From contig CAWFSF010000006.1 of the NCBI GenBank assembly GCA_963818475.1, forward strand, positions 192,001 through 256,000: a stretch of 64,000 bases of DNA. The letters are read 5' to 3'. A model generated the notes under the pieces. That model was not told where the DNA came from. It saw only the letters and a list, made by a program, of their open reading frames with translations, and did no database searches. This stretch comes from Nitrospirota bacterium (GTDB lineage Bacteria; Nitrospirota; UBA9217). Made by a program: the position numbers and the translations under genes. This document shows, piece by piece, positions 6,252-39,833 of this stretch; position 1 is the stretch's first letter, and every line of letters begins with the position of its first letter.

Positions 6252-6592
6252 TTATTCGACTTCCTTCCTCCGCCGCCACCGCCGCGATCAAATCCGGAAC
6301 GCTGTCCACCCCTTCCTCCGCCGCCACCGGTCCGGGGACGATCCGTTTGGGGCCGAGCCTCACTGACATTGATCGTCCGGTCCAGAACAGCCGTGCCGTT
6401 CAGCGTTGCGATCGCTTTATCAGCGTCCTCGTCAACTGCCATTTCAACGAAACCGAAACCCTTTGACCTGCCTGTTGCAGCATCCGTGATGATCCTTACC
6501 GACTGAACTTCCCCGATGGCCGCGAATACTTCCTTGAGACTGTCTTCGGTCACGTTGTACGACAAATTGCCCACATACAGTTTCTTTGCCAT
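6242..6592 (-). CDS. RRM-domain RNA-binding protein with Gly/Arg-rich tail
   Basis: RNP2 LYVGNL, RNP1 KGFGFVEM, GGGGGRGG tail. Confidence 0.93.
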   Translation of the reverse strand: MAKKLYVGNLSYNVTEDSLKEVFAAIGEVQSVRIITDAATGRSKGFGFVEMAVDEDADKAIATLNGTAVLDRTINVSEARPQTDRPRTGGGGGRGGQRSGFDRGGGGGGRKSNNWR

Positions 6593-6855
6593 TTGCTCCT
6601 CCTGTCTGGTTGTTCACTGCACTACGGTCGCACATGTCTGCTACTTTGTTCGTATGAGGGAACCGGAAATCCCGAAGAAACCGTAACTGTTTTCAGATGG
6701 TTTTCAGTGCTTGCGTCCAGAGACTTTAAAACTGAGCAATAAAAATAAAAAAGACCGCAAAAATATAAGTTTTTGCAGTCCGAATCCGATTAACAAAAAC
6801 TCCGAAAATTACTTATGATAATCTGTGTACAGTATAGGTGGCATGCAAAGAAAAG

Positions 6856-8223
6856 TCAACCCGTTTTATTTTTTTTCCGGCTGCTGACCGGCTTTTTGCG
6901 GGGAGATTCTTCTTCTCTGCGCCGTTTGGGGAATATCCGGACGGGCGTGCCCAGGAAGCCGAAGGCCCGGCGCAGGTTGTTCTCGATGAACCGGAGGTAT
7001 GAAAAATGGACGCCGTCCGGGTAGTTGACGAAGACGACGAAGGTCGGCGGTTTAATGTCCACCTGGGTGATGTAAAAGTACTTCACCCGCTTGCCGCGGT
7101 AGAGCGGCGGTTCGTGGTGCGCGGCAAGTTTTTCGAACACCCGGTTCAGGTCCGCCGTGGAGACCCGTTTCGAGGCCTCGACCATGACCTTGTCGATCTC
7201 GTCGAAGACCTTGGTGATGCGCTGCCGCGTCAATGCCGACATGGTGAGCACGGGCGCGTAATCGACGAACTTGAGCTTCTGCTCGGCCTGCGCCATCATC
7301 CGCTTGTATTCCTCTTCCTTGTCGGTGACCAGGTCCCATTTGTTCAGGATAATGATGATCGCCTTGCCGGCCTCGTGCGCCAGGCCGACGATCCGTTCGT
7401 CCTGCTCGGTGATTCCTTCGATGGAATCGATCAGGACGAGAGCCACGTCGGCGCGGTCCAGGCTTTTGATGGCCCGCATGACGCTGTATTTCTCTACGCC
7501 CTGAGTGACTCTGCCGCGGCTCCTGATGCCTGCAGTGTCCACGAGCACATACTTCCGGCCGTAGTACTGGTACAGGCTGTCCACGGCGTCCCTCGTTGTT
7601 CCCGAGACAGGGCTTACGATCATCCGGTCCTCGCCGATGAGCGCGTTGATGAACGATGATTTGCCCACGTTGGGCCTGCCGATGATCGCTATCCGCGGAT
7701 GGGTTTCCTCCGGCTCGGACCCGGTTACCGGAAGGAGCCGCGTCAGTTCCTCCATGAGCTCCGAAAAACCGCCGCCATGCTGTGCTGAAAGGGGATAGAG
7801 CGTGTCGATGCCGAGGCGGTAAAAGTCCAGGATGAGGCCCTCATGCCGGGCCCCGTCGACCTTATTCACGGCATAGAGCACGGGTTTGCCCGAGGCCCGG
7901 AGCCGCTGACACACTTCGATGTCGGCCGGCAGCAGGCCCTGCTGTCCGTCCATAAGGAAAACGATGATGTCCGCTTCTTCAATGGCGAGCGTGGTCTGCT
8001 CGCGCATCTTGGTGAACATGGGATCGTCGGTCTCCGGCTCGAACCCGCCGGTGTCGATGATCAGGAAATGCTTGCCTTCCCATTCCGCGTTGGCGTAGTT
8101 GCGGTCCCGCGTTACGCCGGGTTTGTCCTCGACGATGGCGAGGTTCCTGCCGATGATCCGGTTGAAGAGGGTCGACTTGCCGACATTCGGCCGGCCGACT
8201 ATGGCGATGACTGGTTTAGACAT
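6856..8223 (-). CDS. der: Ribosome biogenesis GTPase Der (EngA)
   Basis: Two GTPase domains (GRPNVGKS twice, DTGG/DTAG, NKVD/NKWD). Confidence 0.97.
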   Translation of the reverse strand: MSKPVIAIVGRPNVGKSTLFNRIIGRNLAIVEDKPGVTRDRNYANAEWEGKHFLIIDTGGFEPETDDPMFTKMREQTTLAIEEADIIVFLMDGQQGLLPADIEVCQRLRASGKPVLYAVNKVDGARHEGLILDFYRLGIDTLYPLSAQHGGGFSELMEELTRLLPVTGSEPEETHPRIAIIGRPNVGKSSFINALIGEDRMIVSPVSGTTRDAVDSLYQYYGRKYVLVDTAGIRSRGRVTQGVEKYSVMRAIKSLDRADVALVLIDSIEGITEQDERIVGLAHEAGKAIIIILNKWDLVTDKEEEYKRMMAQAEQKLKFVDYAPVLTMSALTRQRITKVFDEIDKVMVEASKRVSTADLNRVFEKLAAHHEPPLYRGKRVKYFYITQVDIKPPTFVVFVNYPDGVHFSYLRFIENNLRRAFGFLGTPVRIFPKRRREEESPRKKPVSSRKKNKTG

Positions 8224-29130: not shown

Positions 29131-29187
29131 TTAACCTGGCGCTCGACAGCGACGCGCCAAAGTCGGCGCGTCAGCCGCGCGTTGCTT
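29129..29187 (+). other. attC site 6
   Basis: GATTAAC (exact complement of upstream GTTAATC)..GACGCGCC-loop-GGCGCGTC..GTTGCTT; close relative of attC2. Confidence 0.85.
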
Positions 29188-29227
29188 TTTATTCTTCCGG
29201 CATGTTCAGACAAAGTAGGCGCGCTTA

Positions 29228-30186
29228 ATGAATCCAAAACAACCTATTAAACTCGGCATCAGCTCCTGCCTCCTGGGCAACAATGTCCGCTACGACGGCG
29301 GGCACAAGCTCGACCCTTATCTGCGCCAGACGCTGGGACAGTTCATCGAGTGGGTGCCGATCTGCCCTGAGGCGGAATGCGGACTGCCTGTTCCGCGGGA
29401 GGCAATGGACCTGGTCGGCGATCCGGAGTTCACCGCGGCCTGATCACCAGGGTCACGGGCGTAGACCATACGGGCCGCATGTTGCAATGGGTGAAGAAAA
29501 AACTGGCTGCACTCGAACGAGAAGACTTATGCGGCTTTGTGCTGAAGGCGCGGTCGCCGAGCTGCGGCGTGCATGATTCGAAGGTCTATTCCAAACCCGG
29601 CAGGGTCGCAAACGGAAGGGCGGGCTTGTTCGCCGAGGCGGTCATGGTCCGCTTTCCTTTCATGCCGGTCGAGGATGAAGAAGGGCTGCAAGACCCTGGC
29701 ATCAGGGAAAATTTCATCGAACGTCTGTTCGTGTATCAGCGATGGCAGGATTCTCTCGGTAAAGGAGGAACGGTCGGACAGCTGGTCGCGTTCCATAGCC
29801 GGCATAAATATATGCTCATGTCGCATAGCGCAAAGCACTTGAAGGAGCTGGGCAGCCTTGTTGCGGATCTCAAGAAGTACAAACGGTCGGAGCTGTACGA
29901 ACGGTATTTCAAAATCCTGATGGAAGGCCTGAACCTGCAGGCAACGGTCAGGAAGCATACCAATGTGCTGCAGCATATGGCAGGGTATTTCAAGAAACAG
30001 CTTACTCCCGCGGAAAAGCTGGAATTGCACGATGTCATCACCCAATACCGCCAGGGCCTTGTCCCGCTCATCGTACCGATCACGCTCATTAACCACTACG
30101 TAAGGAAGTACGACGACCCCTACCTGAAGGAACAGCATTACCTGAATCCTCACCCGCTGGAACTCATGCTCAGGAATCACGCCTGA
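29228..30186 (+). CDS. DUF523+DUF1722 (YbgA-like) protein (one frameshift)
   Basis: GISSCLLG..VRYDGGH, ICPE, SPSCG, FHSRHKY, YLNPHP. Confidence 0.88.
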
Positions 30187-30214: not shown

Positions 30215-30490
30215 AATTTGCCACGAAGACTCGAAGTCACGAAGAAAAACGAAAATTGCTTAAGCTACTGTTTTAATAATTGGATTAAGGCCGTAACTTT
30301 GTGTCTTCGTGCCTTCGTGGCAAAATATTCTTGCCGTTTTGAGTAGAATTTGATTCGTAACTAACTAACCTGGACGAACTCATATTTGCCACGAAGGCAC
30401 GAAGGCGCGAAGAAATGTCTGAGTCCTTGAGATTTATGAAATTAACAGGTTTACGGACGTTCTTCGAGTCTTAGTGTCTTCGTGGCGAAA
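30215..30490. repeat. Two octamer-type (CACGAAGR) inverted-repeat units
   Basis: gccacgaagactcgaagtcacgaag...cttcgtgccttcgtggc, repeated; related unit at 38095-38182. Confidence 0.8.
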
Positions 30491-30661
30491 GCCTTAGCCC
30501 GACGTTTATGCCCTCCTGCATGCATAAACACAACAGTTTCCGCAGTTATAACGTTAAAATCCGCTACAAAAGCCCTTCTTTTGCGAGACTTAATTGCTTT
30601 TCGCCTGGATAGTCTGTATAATGTCATTCTTAAAATAGGGACTGAACCACGAAAGGAACAC

Positions 30662-32398
30662 ATGGAAGAGCGTATACAGAAGATCATATCAGCCGCGGGG
30701 GTCACATCGCGCCGCGCTGCGGAAGAGCTTATAGCCGAGGGCAGGGTGCGGGTGAACGGCCAGGTGGTGACCGAACTCGGGACCAAGGCAGACCCGTCCA
30801 AGGACCATATCAAGGTTGACGGCAAACTTATCAATCCCCACCAGCCGCTTACCTATATCATGCTGAACAAACCGGCAGGGTATGTGACGACCATGTCCGA
30901 TCCGGAGGGGCGGCCCACGGTGCAGGACCTGCTCAAAGGGGTCAAGATCAGGGTCTATCCCGTCGGCAGGCTGGACTACAATACCGAAGGGCTTCTGCTG
31001 CTTACGAATGACGGTGATTTCGCCCACCTGGTAACGCACCCCAAACACGAATTCCCCAAGACCTACCTGGCGAAGATCAAGGGTGTGCTCGAGGATGGAG
31101 CGATCGCGGCGCTCGAAGCTGGCGTTTTCCTGAAGGACGGGAAGACCGCGCCTGCGAAGATAAAAAAGATCAGGAAGGAAGAATCCAATTCCTGGCTCGA
31201 GATCACGATCCACGAAGGACGGAAGCGGCAGGTGCGCCGCATGTTCGACCACATGGGGCATACGGTGATCCGTCTCAAAAGGGTCAAGACCGGCGGGCTC
31301 ACGCTGGGCGACCTTCCTGAAGGCAGAATGCGCTATCTGACGCCTGAAGAGGTGGCCATCCTCAGGGCAACGGCCGAGAAGACCGATGTCGGCGGCCAGC
31401 AGGTCAGGGTATACAAGCCGGAGATGAAGAAGCAGAAGGCAGAAGCAAGAGAACTGCAGGGTTCAGGGTCCGGGGTCCAGGGTTCGGGTGGAAGAGAAGA
31501 GAGAATAAACGCAGGTCCAAAGACCATGGTTATGCACGAGACCGGTACCGGCCTCAGGAAGAACCAGCAGGGCAGGCCCGAGAGGAGCGGCAGCTTCGCA
31601 AGGACCAGCGAACCTGGTTTCACCCCACGCACCGCATCCAGCCGGCCGCCGAGGACAGACCGTCCCTCTGCTGCTGGCAGGCCGGCCTCCAGCCGTTCTG
31701 CATCAGGAACGTATGCGCGTAAGCCTGATACCGGGAATCCCGATTGGAAGACATCCCGGCCCCGGCCAGCAGCCGGCGCCCGGCCCGGCACACGACCCGG
31801 TTATTCGAGAAGCAGCGCGCCTGCTCGCGGGGCAAGAGATGAGGTAAGCAGTACCCGTCCCGGAAGTTTCAAACCCCGAAGTGATCGTCCCTATAGCCCG
31901 GGCGCGCGATCTACCTATGATCATGCGGCAACAGGAACGTATGCGCGCAGTGCAGCGCCAGGGACTCCACGCAGCAGGCCGTCAGCGTCCGCATCCGCAC
32001 GGCCGAGGCCATCAGCCGGCGGCCGGCCCGACTCAAGACCCGGTTATGCAAGAAGCAGCGCGCCCGCTCGCGGAGGAAGGGATGATGGCCGCAGCACCCG
32101 CCCCTCGAGCTTCAATTCCCGTCCCGGCCGGCCTTACAGCCCGGGAGCACGATCTGCGTCAGACCGCCCGGCAGCAGGAACATATACGCGCAGTGCAGCG
32201 CCGAGGACTTCGAGCAGCAGGCCGTCAACGGGAGCACCCGCATGGAAGGCAGGCGCCCGTCCGAGGCCTAACCCCGGTGCATGGCCCAGCAAGGGGGGAG
32301 CCGGTGGCAGAGTCTCGGGACCCCGTCCGAACAAAAGTACCCATAAAGGGCCGGCACGCGGGCCCAAGGGCGGCGGTCGCAGCGCAGGGAGAAGATAA
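30662..32398 (+). CDS. rluB: RsuA/RluB-family pseudouridine synthase with long repetitive C-terminal tail
   Basis: S4 domain ERIQK..SRRAAE, NKPAGY, VGRLD, EGRKRQVRRM. Confidence 0.85.
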   Translation: MEERIQKIISAAGVTSRRAAEELIAEGRVRVNGQVVTELGTKADPSKDHIKVDGKLINPHQPLTYIMLNKPAGYVTTMSDPEGRPTVQDLLKGVKIRVYPVGRLDYNTEGLLLLTNDGDFAHLVTHPKHEFPKTYLAKIKGVLEDGAIAALEAGVFLKDGKTAPAKIKKIRKEESNSWLEITIHEGRKRQVRRMFDHMGHTVIRLKRVKTGGLTLGDLPEGRMRYLTPEEVAILRATAEKTDVGGQQVRVYKPEMKKQKAEARELQGSGSGVQGSGGREERINAGPKTMVMHETGTGLRKNQQGRPERSGSFARTSEPGFTPRTASSRPPRTDRPSAAGRPASSRSASGTYARKPDTGNPDWKTSRPRPAAGARPGTRPGYSRSSAPARGARDEVSSTRPGSFKPRSDRPYSPGARSTYDHAATGTYARSAAPGTPRSRPSASASARPRPSAGGRPDSRPGYARSSAPARGGRDDGRSTRPSSFNSRPGRPYSPGARSASDRPAAGTYTRSAAPRTSSSRPSTGAPAWKAGARPRPNPGAWPSKGGAGGRVSGPRPNKSTHKGPARGPKGGGRSAGRR

Positions 32399-35245: not shown

Positions 35246-35929
35246 ATGGCTGAAAAGAAAAAGCTTGGTGACTTTCTGAAGGAAGCCGGCCTGATCGATG
35301 ACTTTCAGCTCCAGACGGCACTTTCGCACCAACGGAACTGGGGCGGCAAGCTGGGATCCATCCTCGTTGAGATGGAGTTCATCCGCGAGGAGGAACTTGC
35401 CAGGGTGATCGCGGAAAAAATGGGCATCCCCTATGTGAACCTGTTCGAACCTGAACTTCCCGCGGCATCGATCATGCTCATCAAGGCCGATGTGGCAAAG
35501 AAATACGGCGTCATGCCGGTCAGAAAAGAAGGGAACTCGATCGTGATCGCCATGTCCGATCCGCTGGATATGGAGGCCATCGACGACCTCAGGTTCAGCA
35601 CCGGTTTAGTGGTCAAGCCTGCGCTGGCGCTGGAATCCGAGATCAAAGACGCCATCAGGAAATATTACGACGGCGAAGAAGTGGTCCGTAAAACGAAAGT
35701 GGTCTCTTTCGGCAAGCCTGGCAAGATGGAGATCATCTTCGGGAGCGATCTGATGTCGAACAGCAGTGAGGCTCAGGTTGCGGTCACCGCCCAGGGAGAG
35801 GCTTCCAGCAAGGGATCGCAGGAGGACCGTCTCCGCCTTGATGCGCTTATCACCCTGTTGATCGAAAAAAACATCATTAACCGCGAGGACCTCGTCAAAA
35901 TGATTTATCAAAAGAAAATCGGGTTGTAG
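35246..35929 (+). CDS. Stand-alone MshEN/GspE N-terminal domain protein
   Basis: KLGDFLKEAGLI..QLQTALSHQ..KLGSILVEM; IAMSDPLD; no ATPase domain. Confidence 0.85.
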   Translation: MAEKKKLGDFLKEAGLIDDFQLQTALSHQRNWGGKLGSILVEMEFIREEELARVIAEKMGIPYVNLFEPELPAASIMLIKADVAKKYGVMPVRKEGNSIVIAMSDPLDMEAIDDLRFSTGLVVKPALALESEIKDAIRKYYDGEEVVRKTKVVSFGKPGKMEIIFGSDLMSNSSEAQVAVTAQGEASSKGSQEDRLRLDALITLLIEKNIINREDLVKMIYQKKIGL

Positions 35930-36109
35930 GTGTTCAGGAAAGGTGTATATGAAAACCTGCCGGGATTTCATCAGGATAACGGTGAAAGGCAAACATATCC
36001 GCAGATTTCGCTGATGACGCATATTTTATAACCACTTGAGTGTTACGATTTTCTCTGTGTTCTCTGTGGTTGCTTTTGACAATACGGTCCAGGGGAAAGG
36101 AGTAGTGCA

Positions 36110-36520
36110 ATGAAACAGAAGGTATTTGCGATCATGCTCGTGGCAGTTGCAGCCGGCTTTTTCTGCCAGCCGCTGCCGGCCCAGGAGTCGAAGGGGCCTC
36201 AGATAGAGATCAAAGAGGCGACCTACGATTTCGGCAAGGTTGTCGAGGGGGCCAGACTGCAGCATGTGTTCGAGGTGGGGAACACCGGAGATGCCGCGCT
36301 CGATATCCAGCGGATCCAGCCTACTTGAGGCTGCACCGCCGCGGTGATTAGTTCTAATCACCTTGAACCGGGAGACATTGGCCGCATCCAGGCATCGGTG
36401 GACACCGCCGGCAGGAGCGGTCTCCTGGTTAAAAAAATATCGATCTACTCGAATGACCAAAGAAATCCGGTACGGACGATCATCATGACCATGGACATCA
36501 TCCAAAAGCCCAAGCCATAA
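36110..36520 (+). CDS. DUF1573-like exported protein with in-frame UGA (putative selenocysteine)
   Basis: Signal peptide, YDFGKV, F.V.N.GDA.L.I, then PT-TGA-GCT and continued frame ..LEPGD.G.I..SND to TAA at 36518. Confidence 0.8.
36343..36362 (+). promoter_or_regulatory. Candidate bacterial SECIS hairpin
   Basis: GGTGATTA-GTTC-TAATCACC; loop starts 22 nt after the UGA with GU. Confidence 0.72.
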
Positions 36521-36691
36521 GGCGCGTGCGGCAGGGACGGGAGCTCGATTTTTTGCCCTTTCCGCCTGCAGGTGGTCGGAGTTTCCGCTTTTCCGTTGCC
36601 CGAAAAGAGGAACAGGTCGGAAAACCCTGTTTTTATCATGATATTTCCTCACCAGGTTCTCAGGGTGCCGGGTTCTATCCGTATTATTTCC

Positions 36692-36719
36692 TTGACAATT
36701 TTCAGCCCCCTGTGCTAAT
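36692..36719 (+). promoter_or_regulatory. Sigma70-type promoter upstream of aminotransferase-serA-purA
   Basis: TTGACA-16bp-GCTAAT. Confidence 0.5.
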
Positions 36720-36947
36720 TTCATAGGGCTTTTTGACCCAAGTGACCAAAGGAAAGGTAGTTCAACTTGAAACAGCACAGACATCCGCACTATCCCAGCG
36801 ACACGCCAACCCCGGGCATAGGTCCCGTCCCGGCGGGCCTGTGACTTCTTCGTTGTGACGGAAACCTTTTGTGTTTCAGCGCTTGTGTACGATAATACAA
36901 AACTCAACTTATAATTGCCATTTACCGTAAGAATTGGAGGAACTCCC

Positions 36948-38084
36948 ATGCAGAAAAAATATCTCCTTGCCCCTGGACCGACACCGGTGCCGCCTGAGGC
37001 GCTGCTCGCCATGGCCATGCCGATCATCCATCACCGCGCGCCTGACTTCCTGCCCGTGCTCGATTCAGCGAAAAAGGGCCTTCAGTGGCTCTATCAGACC
37101 AAGAACGATGTGCTGATCCTGTGTTCCACCGGCACCGGCGGTATGGACGGCGCAGTGTCAAATTTCCTGAGCCCCGGCGACGACGTGCTGGTCATCAATG
37201 GCGGTAAGTTCGGCGAACGCTGGACCAAGATCTGCCAGGCATACGGCATGAAGGTGGAAGAGATCCTGGTGGAGTGGGGTTATTCCGTGAAGGCCGAGCA
37301 GGTAGAGGCCAGCCTCAAGAAGAACCCCAAGATCAAGGCCGTGTTCGTCCAGGCGAACGAGACCTCCACCGGCGTGTACCACGATATCAAGTCGCTCGCC
37401 GCCGTCGTCAAGAAGACCGACGCGCTCTTTGTGGTTGACGCTATCTCGGCGCTCGTGGCCCATGACATCAGGACGGACGAGTGGGGCATCGACGTGGTGA
37501 TCGGCGGCTCCCAGAAGGGCGTGATGCTGCCTCCGGGGCTTGCCTTCGTGTCCGTCAGCGACAAGGCCTGGAAGATGGCCGATACGGCAAAGACGCCGAA
37601 ATTCTATTTTAATTTCAAAAAAGAGCGCGAGAACCTGTCCAAGAACCAGACGACCTGGACGTCTCCCGTGACGCTCATCATCGGCCTGAACGCCGCCATC
37701 AAGATGCTCCAGGACGAGGGGCTCGAGAACGTGCTCAAGCGCCACGATAAGCTTGCCCGGGCGACCCGCGCGGGAGCTCTGGCGCTCGGCCTCAAGCTCT
37801 TCCCCAAGGAAAGCCCGAGCAATGCGCTCACGGCCATCGAAGCGCCGGCAGGCGTGGACGGCCAGGCGATCTACAAGGACCTGCGCGTGAAGTACGGCAT
37901 CACCGGCGCAGGCGGCCAGGACAAGCTCAAGGGCAAGATCTTCCGCATCGCGCACCTGGGCTATGCCGACACCTTCGATGTGATCACCGCAATCGCCGGC
38001 ATCGAGATGGTGCTGAAGGGCCTGGGCCATCCGGTGAAGCTCGGCACGGGCGTGGGCGCAGCGCAGGAAATATTGATGAAGTAG
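36948..38084 (+). CDS. Class V PLP aminotransferase (alanine-glyoxylate family, probable SerC-role enzyme)
   Basis: LAPGPTPVP, NETSTGV, VDAIS, GSQKG; directly upstream of serA. Confidence 0.9.
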   Translation: MQKKYLLAPGPTPVPPEALLAMAMPIIHHRAPDFLPVLDSAKKGLQWLYQTKNDVLILCSTGTGGMDGAVSNFLSPGDDVLVINGGKFGERWTKICQAYGMKVEEILVEWGYSVKAEQVEASLKKNPKIKAVFVQANETSTGVYHDIKSLAAVVKKTDALFVVDAISALVAHDIRTDEWGIDVVIGGSQKGVMLPPGLAFVSVSDKAWKMADTAKTPKFYFNFKKERENLSKNQTTWTSPVTLIIGLNAAIKMLQDEGLENVLKRHDKLARATRAGALALGLKLFPKESPSNALTAIEAPAGVDGQAIYKDLRVKYGITGAGGQDKLKGKIFRIAHLGYADTFDVITAIAGIEMVLKGLGHPVKLGTGVGAAQEILMK

Positions 38085-38200
38085 TAACAAATAATTTCGC
38101 CACGAAGGCACGAAGACGCGAAGAACTGCAAGGAGATGCTTTCTGGTCTTCGTGACTTCGAGCCTTAGTGCCTTCGTGGTTAAGTATTTCTGGAGGTTCC

Positions 38201-39833
38201 ATGAAGGTTCTGATCAGCGACAACCTCTCGCCCATCGGGGTGGAGATATTAAAGAAGGCCGGGCTCGACGTCGACGCCCGGAGCAAGACCTCGCGTCGAG
38301 GAGATCGAGAAGATCATCGGCGATTACGACGCGCTGGTCATCCGTTCCGCCACCAAGGTGAACGCTGCGCTGCTCGAGAAGGCAGCGAAGCTCAAGGTCG
38401 TGGGCCGCGCAGGAAGCGGCCTCGACAACGTGGACATCCCGGCTGCCACCAAGAAGGGCGTGGTCGTCATGAACACGCCCGGCGGCAACACGGTCACCAC
38501 GGCGGAGCACACCATCGGCATGATCTTCGCCTGCGCCCGCATGATCCCCCAGGCCTACTCTTCGCTCAAGGCAGGCAAGTGGGAGAAGAAGAAGTTCGAG
38601 GGCATCGAGCTCTATGACAAGACCCTGGGCATCATCGGCATGGGCGCCATCGGCGGCGTGGTCGCGAACCGCTGCCATCGGCGCTCGGCATGAAGGTGCT
38701 GGCCTACGACCCGTTCATTTCGACGGAGAAGGCCAAGTCACTGGGCATCGAGCTGGCCGACCTGCCGACGATCTAGAAACGGTCGGATTTCATCACGGTC
38801 CATACGCCCAAGACCAAGGAGACGGCGAACCTGATCAACAAGGACACGATCGCCCAGATGAAGGACGGCGTGCGCATCATCAACTGCGCCCGCGGCGGCA
38901 TCGTGAACGAGCCGGACCTCTATGAGGCGCTGAAGAGCGGCAAGGTCGGCGGAGCCGCCTTTGACGTGTTCGAGAAGGAGCCGCCGGAGAACCATCCGCT
39001 GCTGACCCTCGACAACTTCATCGCCACGCCGCACCTGGGCGCGTCCACCCTGGAGGCGCAGGAGAACGTGGCCGTGGCCGTGGCCGAGCAGATCGTGGAT
39101 TATCTCATCGCCGGGACCGTCCGGAACGCCGTCAACGTGCCGTCCGTGCCGGCGGACCAGCTCCCGACGCTCAGCCCCTACATCAATCTGGCGGAGCGCA
39201 TGGGCCTGTTCCAGGCGCAGCTCTGCGAAGGCGGCCTCACCCAGGTAGTCGTGGAGTACAGCGGCGAGGTGTCGAACCTCAAGCAGGAGCCGATCACGCT
39301 TGCGGCGCTCAAGGGACTGCTGACGCCGATCGTCGAACGAGAACGTGAACTATGTGAACGCGCCGCTCATTGCCAAGGACCGCGGCATCGAGATCAAGGT
39401 TTCCAAATCAGCGGACACCACCGAATACACGAGCCTGATCACGATCAAGGTCAAGGCCGGCGGCAAGGACCTGTCCGTTGCCGGCACGCTGAACAGCAAG
39501 AAAGAGCCGCGCATCATCCAGGTGGACAACTTCCCCATGGAGACCGTGCCCGAGGGCGACATGCTCGTGCTTATGAACAACGACAAGCCCGGCGTCATCG
39601 GCGGCATCGGCACGATCCTGGGGCAGAACGGGATCAACATCGCCCGCATGCAGTTCGGCCGCGAGAAGCAGGGCGGTCTGGCCATGTCGGTCGTGAGCAT
39701 CGACAGCACCGTGTCCGATGATCTTATGGCAAAGATCAGGCAGATGCCGAACGTGCTGTCGGTGAAGCAGGTCAAGATTAGTAATGCGGATGTGATGCGG
39801 AATTTGTTGAAGGAGTTATCATGCCAGTTTTAG
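38201..39833 (+). CDS. serA: D-3-phosphoglycerate dehydrogenase with ACT domain (frameshifts and one internal TAG)
   Basis: GRAGSGLDNVD, GMGAIG, INCARGG, TPHLGAST, NNDKPGVIG. Confidence 0.93.

Follow-up and report, generated by a model that had tools for sequence, protein, structure and literature searches.

Review tables of prokaryotic selenoprotein families, in the parts available, carry a DUF1573 domain-containing protein (PF07610) with selenocysteine (Sec, U) in the motif U-G-C, an entry traced there to Zhang and Gladyshev (2007, NAR 35:4952). As far as the available part of that paper goes, its family OS_HP2 consisted of two TGA-containing sequences, from the Olavius delta-1 and delta-4 symbionts, and had 0 Cys homologues; we infer that OS_HP2 is the DUF1573 entry from the way the review table is ordered and from the name of an NCBIfam model. 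Judging by titles, a full-text literature search on DUF1573 returned no functional study. The main text of the BSepDB paper mentions neither Nitrospirota nor OS_HP, and the genome list in its supplement has at least 123 occurrences of “Nitrospirota.” Here we describe a probable member of this family at positions 36110 to 36520 of a 64,000-nucleotide (nt) stretch of DNA from a Nitrospirota bacterium (assembly GCA_963818475.1, contig CAWFSF010000006.1, positions 192,001 to 256,000 of the forward strand), which we call the window. An original prediction, made from the sequence of the window without database searches, had proposed a hidden selenoprotein at this place.

The best explanation overall, to which we assign a probability of roughly 0.88, is that the locus constitutes a single gene encoding an exported selenoprotein of 136 residues. 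An open reading frame (ORF) on the forward strand (36110-36328) starts at ATG 36110 and is closed after 72 residues by TGA 36326-36328, and 63 more codons lie open in the same frame (36329-36517), up to TAA 36518-36520. With the TGA read as Sec, the local sequence becomes I-Q-P-T-U-G-C-T-A-A-V-I-S-S-N-H, and residues 32-125 of the product align with positions 1-94 of the 98 in the PF07610 profile (E value 1.9e-22), scoring 79.6 bits, above the gathering threshold of 26.1. PF22544, the HYDIN/VesB immunoglobulin (Ig)-like family, also matches the read-through protein (E 8.4e-13). Because the DUF1573 match is continuous across the TGA, the triplet falls in the middle of one domain, and the frame that the original prediction had described as open and domain-like past the TGA proved to be the second half of that domain.

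The read-through protein was searched in 41 genomes, those of the window organism and its relatives; 33 had a match, and the gene was taken from 30 loci among the matches listed. At the column of the TGA these Nitrospirota loci have TGA in 23 cases and Cys, in C-G-C-T, in seven, with no other variation, and the G and C that follow are invariant throughout the alignment. The TGA therefore sits where it had been predicted to sit, at the first Cys of the family motif (P-T-U-G-C-T), and the alignment of homologues suggested at the time gave the Sec/Cys pairing that had been expected. Among the TGA forms the motif reads U-G-C-T in 16, U-G-C-A in 5, and U-G-C-S in 2; they occur in 22 genomes besides the window organism's own, and their identity to the window protein ranges from 86% to as little as 37%; Cys is found in more distant loci. 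The closest relative with a name is a “Nitrospirae bacterium” metagenome-assembled genome (82% identity), which makes the window organism an uncultivated Nitrospirota member. Over the 44 codons 3' of the TGA, the 23 orthologues differ pairwise by a mean of 0.255, 0.191, and 0.536 at codon positions 1, 2, and 3, respectively, and none contains an in-frame stop. The concentration of differences at third positions, together with the absence of stops, means that the downstream half is translated in this frame; it is also more conserved than the 45 codons upstream.

A scan with NF041425 (“OS_HP2 family (seleno)protein”), the best NCBIfam match of the window protein (E 2.3e-23), gave matches in 126 of 301 Nitrospirota genomes; a hand count put the matches at 143, of which 104 contain a single in-frame TGA and 39 contain no TGA, and its position was checked in the 23 aligned loci. 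Among public sequencing runs, none contained a fraction of the sampled words above 0.12, and four (X1, X2, X17, and X18) were compared. A 3289-nt soil-metagenome contig from run X1 spans 36256-36511 with 17 differences, including a silent T>C at 36325 and none in the TGA; it derives from a relative of the window organism and is not necessarily independent of the metagenome-assembled genomes compared. The two RNA runs among the four cover only 36750-36900, outside the selenoprotein gene.

A hairpin 3' of the TGA resembles a bacterial selenocysteine insertion sequence (SECIS). Its arms, GGTGATTA (36343-36350) and TAATCACC (36355-36362), enclose the loop GTTC (36351-36354); the stem begins 14 nt and the loop 22 nt after the TGA, so that the perfect 8-bp hairpin with a GU-starting loop reported originally at 22 nt is present, the distance being that to the loop. 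In SECIS elements of the SelB type the loop lies 16-37 nt after the UGA. Perfect hairpins of this length are rare, which speaks against a chance placement: the forward strand of the window contains only 14 perfect 8-bp hairpins with loops of 3-8 nt, and only 7 of its 1120 TGA triplets have a perfect 8-bp hairpin with the loop 16-37 nt downstream.

Comparison among the TGA forms carries the case for this element. When the 63 nt from the TGA were aligned for the 23 TGA forms, which required no gaps, RNAalifold predicted a 7-bp core helix pairing columns 18-24 with 31-37. Two-sided changes occur at four of the core pairs: 19-36 (GC>CG, 4 sequences), 21-34 (GC>UA, 1 sequence), 22-33 (AU>GC, 8 sequences), and 24-31 (UA>CG, 7 sequences). 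Across the core helix 83% of cells are paired, as opposed to 27-50% in controls with the partner shifted by 1-3 columns, and 0 of 500 shuffles equaled the real alignment in covariation score or in percentage paired. Column 26, the G of the loop, does not vary. The changes have a particular form on the codons, in that a substitution that alters the protein in one arm is offset by a silent substitution in the opposite arm: with Ile80 (ATY), codon 83 ends in T in 13 of 13 sequences, and with Val80 it ends in C in 8 of 9; with Asn83, codon 80 ends in T in 15 of 15, and with Asp83 it ends in C in 5 of 5; with Val79, codon 84 ends in C in 18 of 18, and with Leu79 it ends in G in 4 of 5. Protein-level selection alone is an unlikely source of such arm-matched silent changes. 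The seven Cys forms all lack the helix, with just 1-4 of the 7 core pairs at that place. The hairpin behaves like a conserved, covarying SECIS-like element, in line with the original proposal. Pair counts give poor support to the outer pairs 11-13/44-46 and 15-16/39-40, and an Rfam scan of 35900-36950 at E values up to 10 was uninformative, returning two chance-level matches to eukaryotic families.

The machinery for Sec insertion, a check that the original prediction had suggested, was sought in the assembly of the window organism, which has 7 contigs and an estimated completeness of 91%. It contains a tRNA-Sec (63.2 bits; gathering score, 47), which ARAGORN likewise reports as tRNA-SeC with anticodon tca. 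The selD gene (contig C6, 2120012-2120939, reverse strand) has an in-frame TGA of its own in the motif S-C-A-G-U-A-S-K, followed about 33 nt later by a hairpin with the loop GUC; its C-terminal part is frameshifted in this assembly. A link between the window motif and the (C/U)-G-C-K loop of SelD in Escherichia coli was considered and dropped, since selD here reads SCAGUASK. Adjacent selA and selB genes lie at C6:1736324-1739560. With an in-frame UGA followed by an open frame and flanked by homology on both sides, Sec/Cys pairing at the UGA column, a conserved stem-loop 3' of the UGA with G in its apical loop, and selA, selB, selC, and selD all found in the genome, the window gene has the attributes of bacterial selenoprotein genes, and we think it very likely that UGA 36326 is recoded as Sec and that this is a real selenoprotein gene. 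The original observation thus stands, and its interpretation finds support.

Other readings of the TGA have to be set against this evidence. Gene callers take it as a true stop, which would leave a 72-residue product and, downstream, either a remnant or a separate small gene from GTG 36344. TGA is indeed the commonest stop in the window, and all eight close homologues in the protein database are only 74-85 residues long, covering 53% of the query. However, half an Ig domain ending within a conserved motif is implausible as a product, and the continuous domain alignment, the Cys at this column in seven homologues, and the better conserved, third-position-variable downstream codons, open in 23 of 23 orthologues, make termination here very improbable. 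A decoding of the UGA by a non-Sec tRNA, such as near-cognate tRNA-Trp or tRNA-Cys, or by a reassigned code would equally keep the downstream frame under selection, and nothing specific favors it. As TGA ends 32 of the 68 ORFs of at least 200 residues in the window, it is a normal stop elsewhere and the genetic code is not reassigned; moreover, the column alternates with Cys only, which is the signature of Sec, leaky read-through, unlike SelB, has no need of a covarying hairpin placed at the distance of a SECIS, and tRNA-Sec and selD are in the genome. We give this explanation as little credence as that of a true stop. Least probable, to the point of being barely credible, is a sequencing or assembly error or a recent nonsense mutation in a pseudogene. 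This assembly does have many frame errors (in selA, in selB, in the C-terminal part of selD, and in a DUF523/DUF1722 gene near position 29400), but those look like frame-shifting indels and the frame is intact at TGA 36326, a distinction drawn in the original prediction that stands. The same TGA is kept in 22 other genomes and in the soil-metagenome contig.

The protein itself is probably exported. Its N-terminal segment has the features of a probable signal peptide of the Sec (general secretory) type, with cleavage inferred after residue 24, and the layout, with A-Q-E after a hydrophobic stretch, is common to most orthologues in the alignment. An AlphaFold2 model built on the 30-sequence alignment (mean predicted local distance difference test score, 92.4; predicted template modeling [TM] score, 0.77) has an N-terminal helix (residues 3-17, in the probable signal peptide) followed by eight strands, and DSSP places U-G-C (73-75) in a turn between strands 64-71 and 76-80. 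The top Foldseek matches of the model are the structure 2qsv, the PapD-like domains of human HYDIN, and Vibrio VesB/VesC (PapD-like/ASH Ig), so that the exported Ig-like protein originally envisaged is what the signal-peptide-like N terminus and the modeled Ig/PapD-like sandwich suggest.

The window gene stands alone between a gene for a 227-residue MshEN-domain protein (upstream) and a class-V aminotransferase gene (downstream). When the window (35246-38084) was compared with the 1.5-kb flanks of the 22 other TGA loci, the MshEN gene was found upstream in 20 and the aminotransferase gene downstream in 19; the MshEN-DUF1573-aminotransferase order is old and conserved across the taxonomic family. 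The neighboring aminotransferase is 85-95% identical among these loci, far above the conservation of the selenoprotein. A scan for promoters and terminators gave nothing convincing.

More distant homologues keep other company. In six of the seven Cys forms (L040, L042-L044, L047, L048, and L059) the DUF1573 domain is joined to a class-I cytochrome c domain that has CxxCH motifs. At L059 (6565-7895, forward strand) a DsbA-like gene (6565-7194) overlaps the DUF1573-cytochrome c gene (7194-7895) by one base, and at L040 (1486-2355, forward strand) a DsbA-like F-Y-C-G-H-C segment follows the Cys-form DUF1573 domain in the same frame. DUF1573 domains with TGA at the same column were also observed in N2O-reductase (nos) clusters of five Nitrospirota genomes of other families (L056, L057, L058, L062, and L063), four of which were annotated by Pfam and one, L062, judged by its matching gene layout only. 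There the DUF1573 domain ends a larger exported protein, after an N-domain and a CarboxypepD_reg domain. The gene order is NosZ, Fer4_5/NosD, ATP-binding cassette (ABC) ATPase, ABC-2 permease, and the DUF1573 protein, followed by a transglutaminase-like protein, a TlpA-like thioredoxin, sometimes SCO1/SenC, and NosL. The motif reads U-R-R-C at L057 (6444-7571, forward strand), and L056 (5619-7060, forward strand) has two DUF1573 domains with two TGAs, in U-R-L-C and U-K-R-A. By title, a full-text literature search for nosZ with selenocysteine and nosD yielded none on a nos-cluster selenoprotein. In the window organism's own genome, a NosD model gave only beta-helix-level matches, and a search for the nosZ propeller found no match, its controls likewise matching nowhere.

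These observations suggest how the gene is very probably read and what its product might do. On meeting UGA 36326, the ribosome would find, 14-34 nt downstream, a hairpin whose apical loop GUUC would recruit SelB-GTP-Sec-tRNA(Sec); insertion of Sec would replace termination, and translation of 63 further codons would complete the DUF1573 Ig-like domain, which the signal peptide would direct to the periplasm. There the U73 selenol and the C75 thiol, which lie at a spacing of two residues in a turn on the protein surface, might cycle between a reduced pair and a selenylsulfide. The protein would then be a small redox relay of the periplasm, either undergoing exchange with thiol-disulfide proteins or giving electrons to c-type cytochromes or accepting them from these. 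We favor such a U73-C75 relay tentatively, because periplasmic thiol-disulfide proteins, copper chaperones, and c-type cytochromes recur near distant homologues: the Cys homologues are fused to cytochrome c and have DsbA-like neighbors (L059, L040), and distant Sec-bearing DUF1573 domains adjoin TlpA-like, SCO1/SenC, and NosL genes. The U-x-C pair had been put forward from the start as a redox or metal site, and both functions remain candidates.

C-x-C pairs bind soft metals, and the same Sec insertion could serve a U-G-C site for a soft metal or metalloid, Cu(I) and perhaps Hg or As, in a periplasmic metallochaperone or scavenger. Related Sec-bearing DUF1573 domains in nos clusters with NosD, NosL, and SCO1/SenC would fit such a function, and so would the metal-related character of other families from the 2007 paper in the available part of the review table (MerT, cation-transporting ATPase, YHS, and putative mercuric reductase). 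The cytochrome c fusion and DsbA pairing are explained equally well by either function, however, and the nos-cluster proteins share only about 30% identity with the window protein and have a different motif; moreover, no nosZ propeller was found in the organism's own genome, although the controls of that search matched nowhere either. We therefore regard a metal site as possible but doubtful. Three DUF1573 forms have now been observed, namely stand-alone U-G-C proteins, C-G-C domains joined to cytochrome c with DsbA, and U-x-x-C domains in nos clusters, and a bolder proposal would make the Nitrospirota DUF1573 selenoproteins a separate phylum-wide periplasmic selenium module whose shared job is to reduce or load the Cys ligands of periplasmic copper and heme enzymes. 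This we consider improbable; if true, the domain would be the first selenoprotein to act in the assembly of a respiratory metalloenzyme.

Several points weigh against the account of an exported selenoprotein with a redox function. Residue 73 is predicted to be Sec from sequence comparison. The 71-nt hairpin stretch folds with ordinary energy (z = -0.47); it is comparison among relatives that gives the hairpin its weight, and thermodynamics does not. The assembly has selA in 4 and selB in 5 collinear pieces in different frames, and no selB piece exceeds its cut-off. Both genes are full-length (selA, 597-602 bits; selB, 376-393 bits) in G005 and G001, which are of the same genus, and in the complete same-family genome G087, and thus in 3 of the 5 relatives checked; selA is likewise fragmented in G003, a few-contig assembly from the same genus, and neither gene had a match in G004, which is 74% complete. 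Because G003 repeats the pattern and the genes are intact in G005, G001, and G087, the breaks look like long-read assembly indels rather than gene decay, although decay in this strain could still account for them. The protein scores 82.4 bits against NF041425, below the 100-bit cut-off, and so falls outside the subfamily as defined, and 0 of the 301 Nitrospirota genomes exceed that cut-off. As regards function, the neighbors of the gene in the window are housekeeping genes that give no clue (TsaB-like, GNAT acetyltransferase, phosphoglycerate dehydrogenase, PurA, and DnaB farther out), the fused and clustered forms behind the functional proposal are only about 30-37% identical to the window protein, and the nos-cluster forms carry U-R-x-C or U-K-R-A, not U-G-C.

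The features of the locus are collected in the table.

Features of the DUF1573 selenoprotein locus (coordinates are those of the window)
Feature	Coordinates	Strand	Basis or remarks
Shine-Dalgarno-like GGAG	36099..36102	+	7 nt 5' of ATG 36110; suggested by sequence
Selenoprotein coding sequence (best explanation)	36110..36520	+	136 residues with U73; stop TAA 36518-36520
Probable Sec-type signal peptide, residues 1-24	36110..36181	+	MKQK, hydrophobic core, LPA/QE (cleavage at the slash); sequence features
DUF1573/HYDIN-VesB-like Ig domain, residues 32-125	36203..36484	+	PF07610 and PF22544 matches
In-frame TGA, very likely selenocysteine U73	36326..36328	+	TGA/Cys pairing among homologues
U-G-C motif (U73 G74 C75)	36326..36334	+	Invariant alignment columns; turn between strands 64-71 and 76-80
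SECIS-like hairpin, 8-bp stem, loop GUUC	36343..36362	+	Rarity, and covariation among TGA forms; loop starts 22 nt 3' of the UGA

Elsewhere in the window, other genes appear to be interrupted. The gene for a DUF523 (2-thiouracil desulfurase-like)/DUF1722 protein (29180-30186, forward strand) is split by a frameshift near 29400, its N terminus M-N-P-K-Q-P-I-K-L-G-I-S-S-C-L-L-G being in another frame than 29377-30186. PF04463 is in the list of selenoprotein families in the available part of a 2026 review, and this gene was considered as a second hidden selenoprotein and ruled out, as it has Cys where the PF04463 Sec forms described in that part have U. The phosphoglycerate dehydrogenase gene (38168-39721, forward strand) also looks broken, probably by another indel: ORF 38858-39721 enters the NAD-binding domain profile only at position 117, and ORF 38168-38617 has no Pfam match at 1e-5. 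In a 638-residue ORF (30482-32398, forward strand) the S4 and pseudouridine synthase domains are confined to residues 1-257, and Pfam gives no match at 1e-5 in the long remainder; the ORF may be two genes joined by a frame error.

How the window gene should be filed depends on which definition of the family is used. It meets the reviews' description of the DUF1573 U-G-C family, having a PF07610 domain with Sec in U-G-C, and it is under this wider family, rather than under the NF041425 subfamily, that we would place it on its sequence. NF041425 is matched by all 30 aligned homologues (best E, 6.9e-25), always below the cut-off, and a phylum in which every match stays under the cut-off points to a separate, phylum-wide Nitrospirota branch that the curated model has missed. 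The gene would thus add a new member, truncated in databases, to a family of selenoproteins that was described in 2007. “Hidden,” the term used in the original prediction, is right for the annotation, but it does not hold for science at large, as the DUF1573 U-G-C family is present in both the literature and NCBIfam. No close homologue that was full-length or named turned up in the protein database, and a cluster look-up of two close homologues returned no names. With close homologues cut at the UGA and without a useful name, an abundant periplasmic protein of anaerobic Nitrospirota is being systematically mis-called, and NF041425 would not rescue its annotation, since the whole clade lies under the cut-off. 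The pairing of Sec with Cys singles out the C-G-C turn as the probable working site of DUF1573. Because the family has been on record since 2007, these results extend a list and open no new question.

Comparison with described systems shows what is shared and what is particular here. As in OS_HP2/NF041425, a PF07610 domain has Sec at the first Cys of C-G-C and a hairpin downstream of the UGA; the Nitrospirota proteins differ in falling below the cut-off of the model and in having Cys homologues (7 of 30 loci), versus 0 for OS_HP2. Those Cys-form DUF1573-cytochrome c fusions have the same domain, the invariant G-C, and a signal peptide, at 29-32% identity over the alignment, but they have Cys for Sec, lack the SECIS helix, are 225-411 residues long, and end in a CxxCH cytochrome c domain. 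The structure 2qsv, of an uncharacterized protein of Porphyromonas gingivalis W83, is the sole solved relative of the domain by sequence profile (E 2.2e-4), and its second domain is also the best structural match to the model among solved structures (Foldseek E 2.1e-7; TM score, 0.67 on the query); it reads R-N-P-A-L where the DUF1573 family reads S-C-G-C-T and is thus without the candidate active site. The one other U-G-C entry in the available part of the 2026 review's selenoprotein table has only the tripeptide in common, being of the thioredoxin fold (cd02966) rather than an Ig-like sandwich and having no sequence relation. The hairpin, like the SECIS of E. coli fdhF, lies within the coding sequence just 3' of the UGA and has an apical loop starting with G-U, unlike it in that the stem sequence is unrelated, and selD of the same genome has a comparable hairpin, with the loop GUC.

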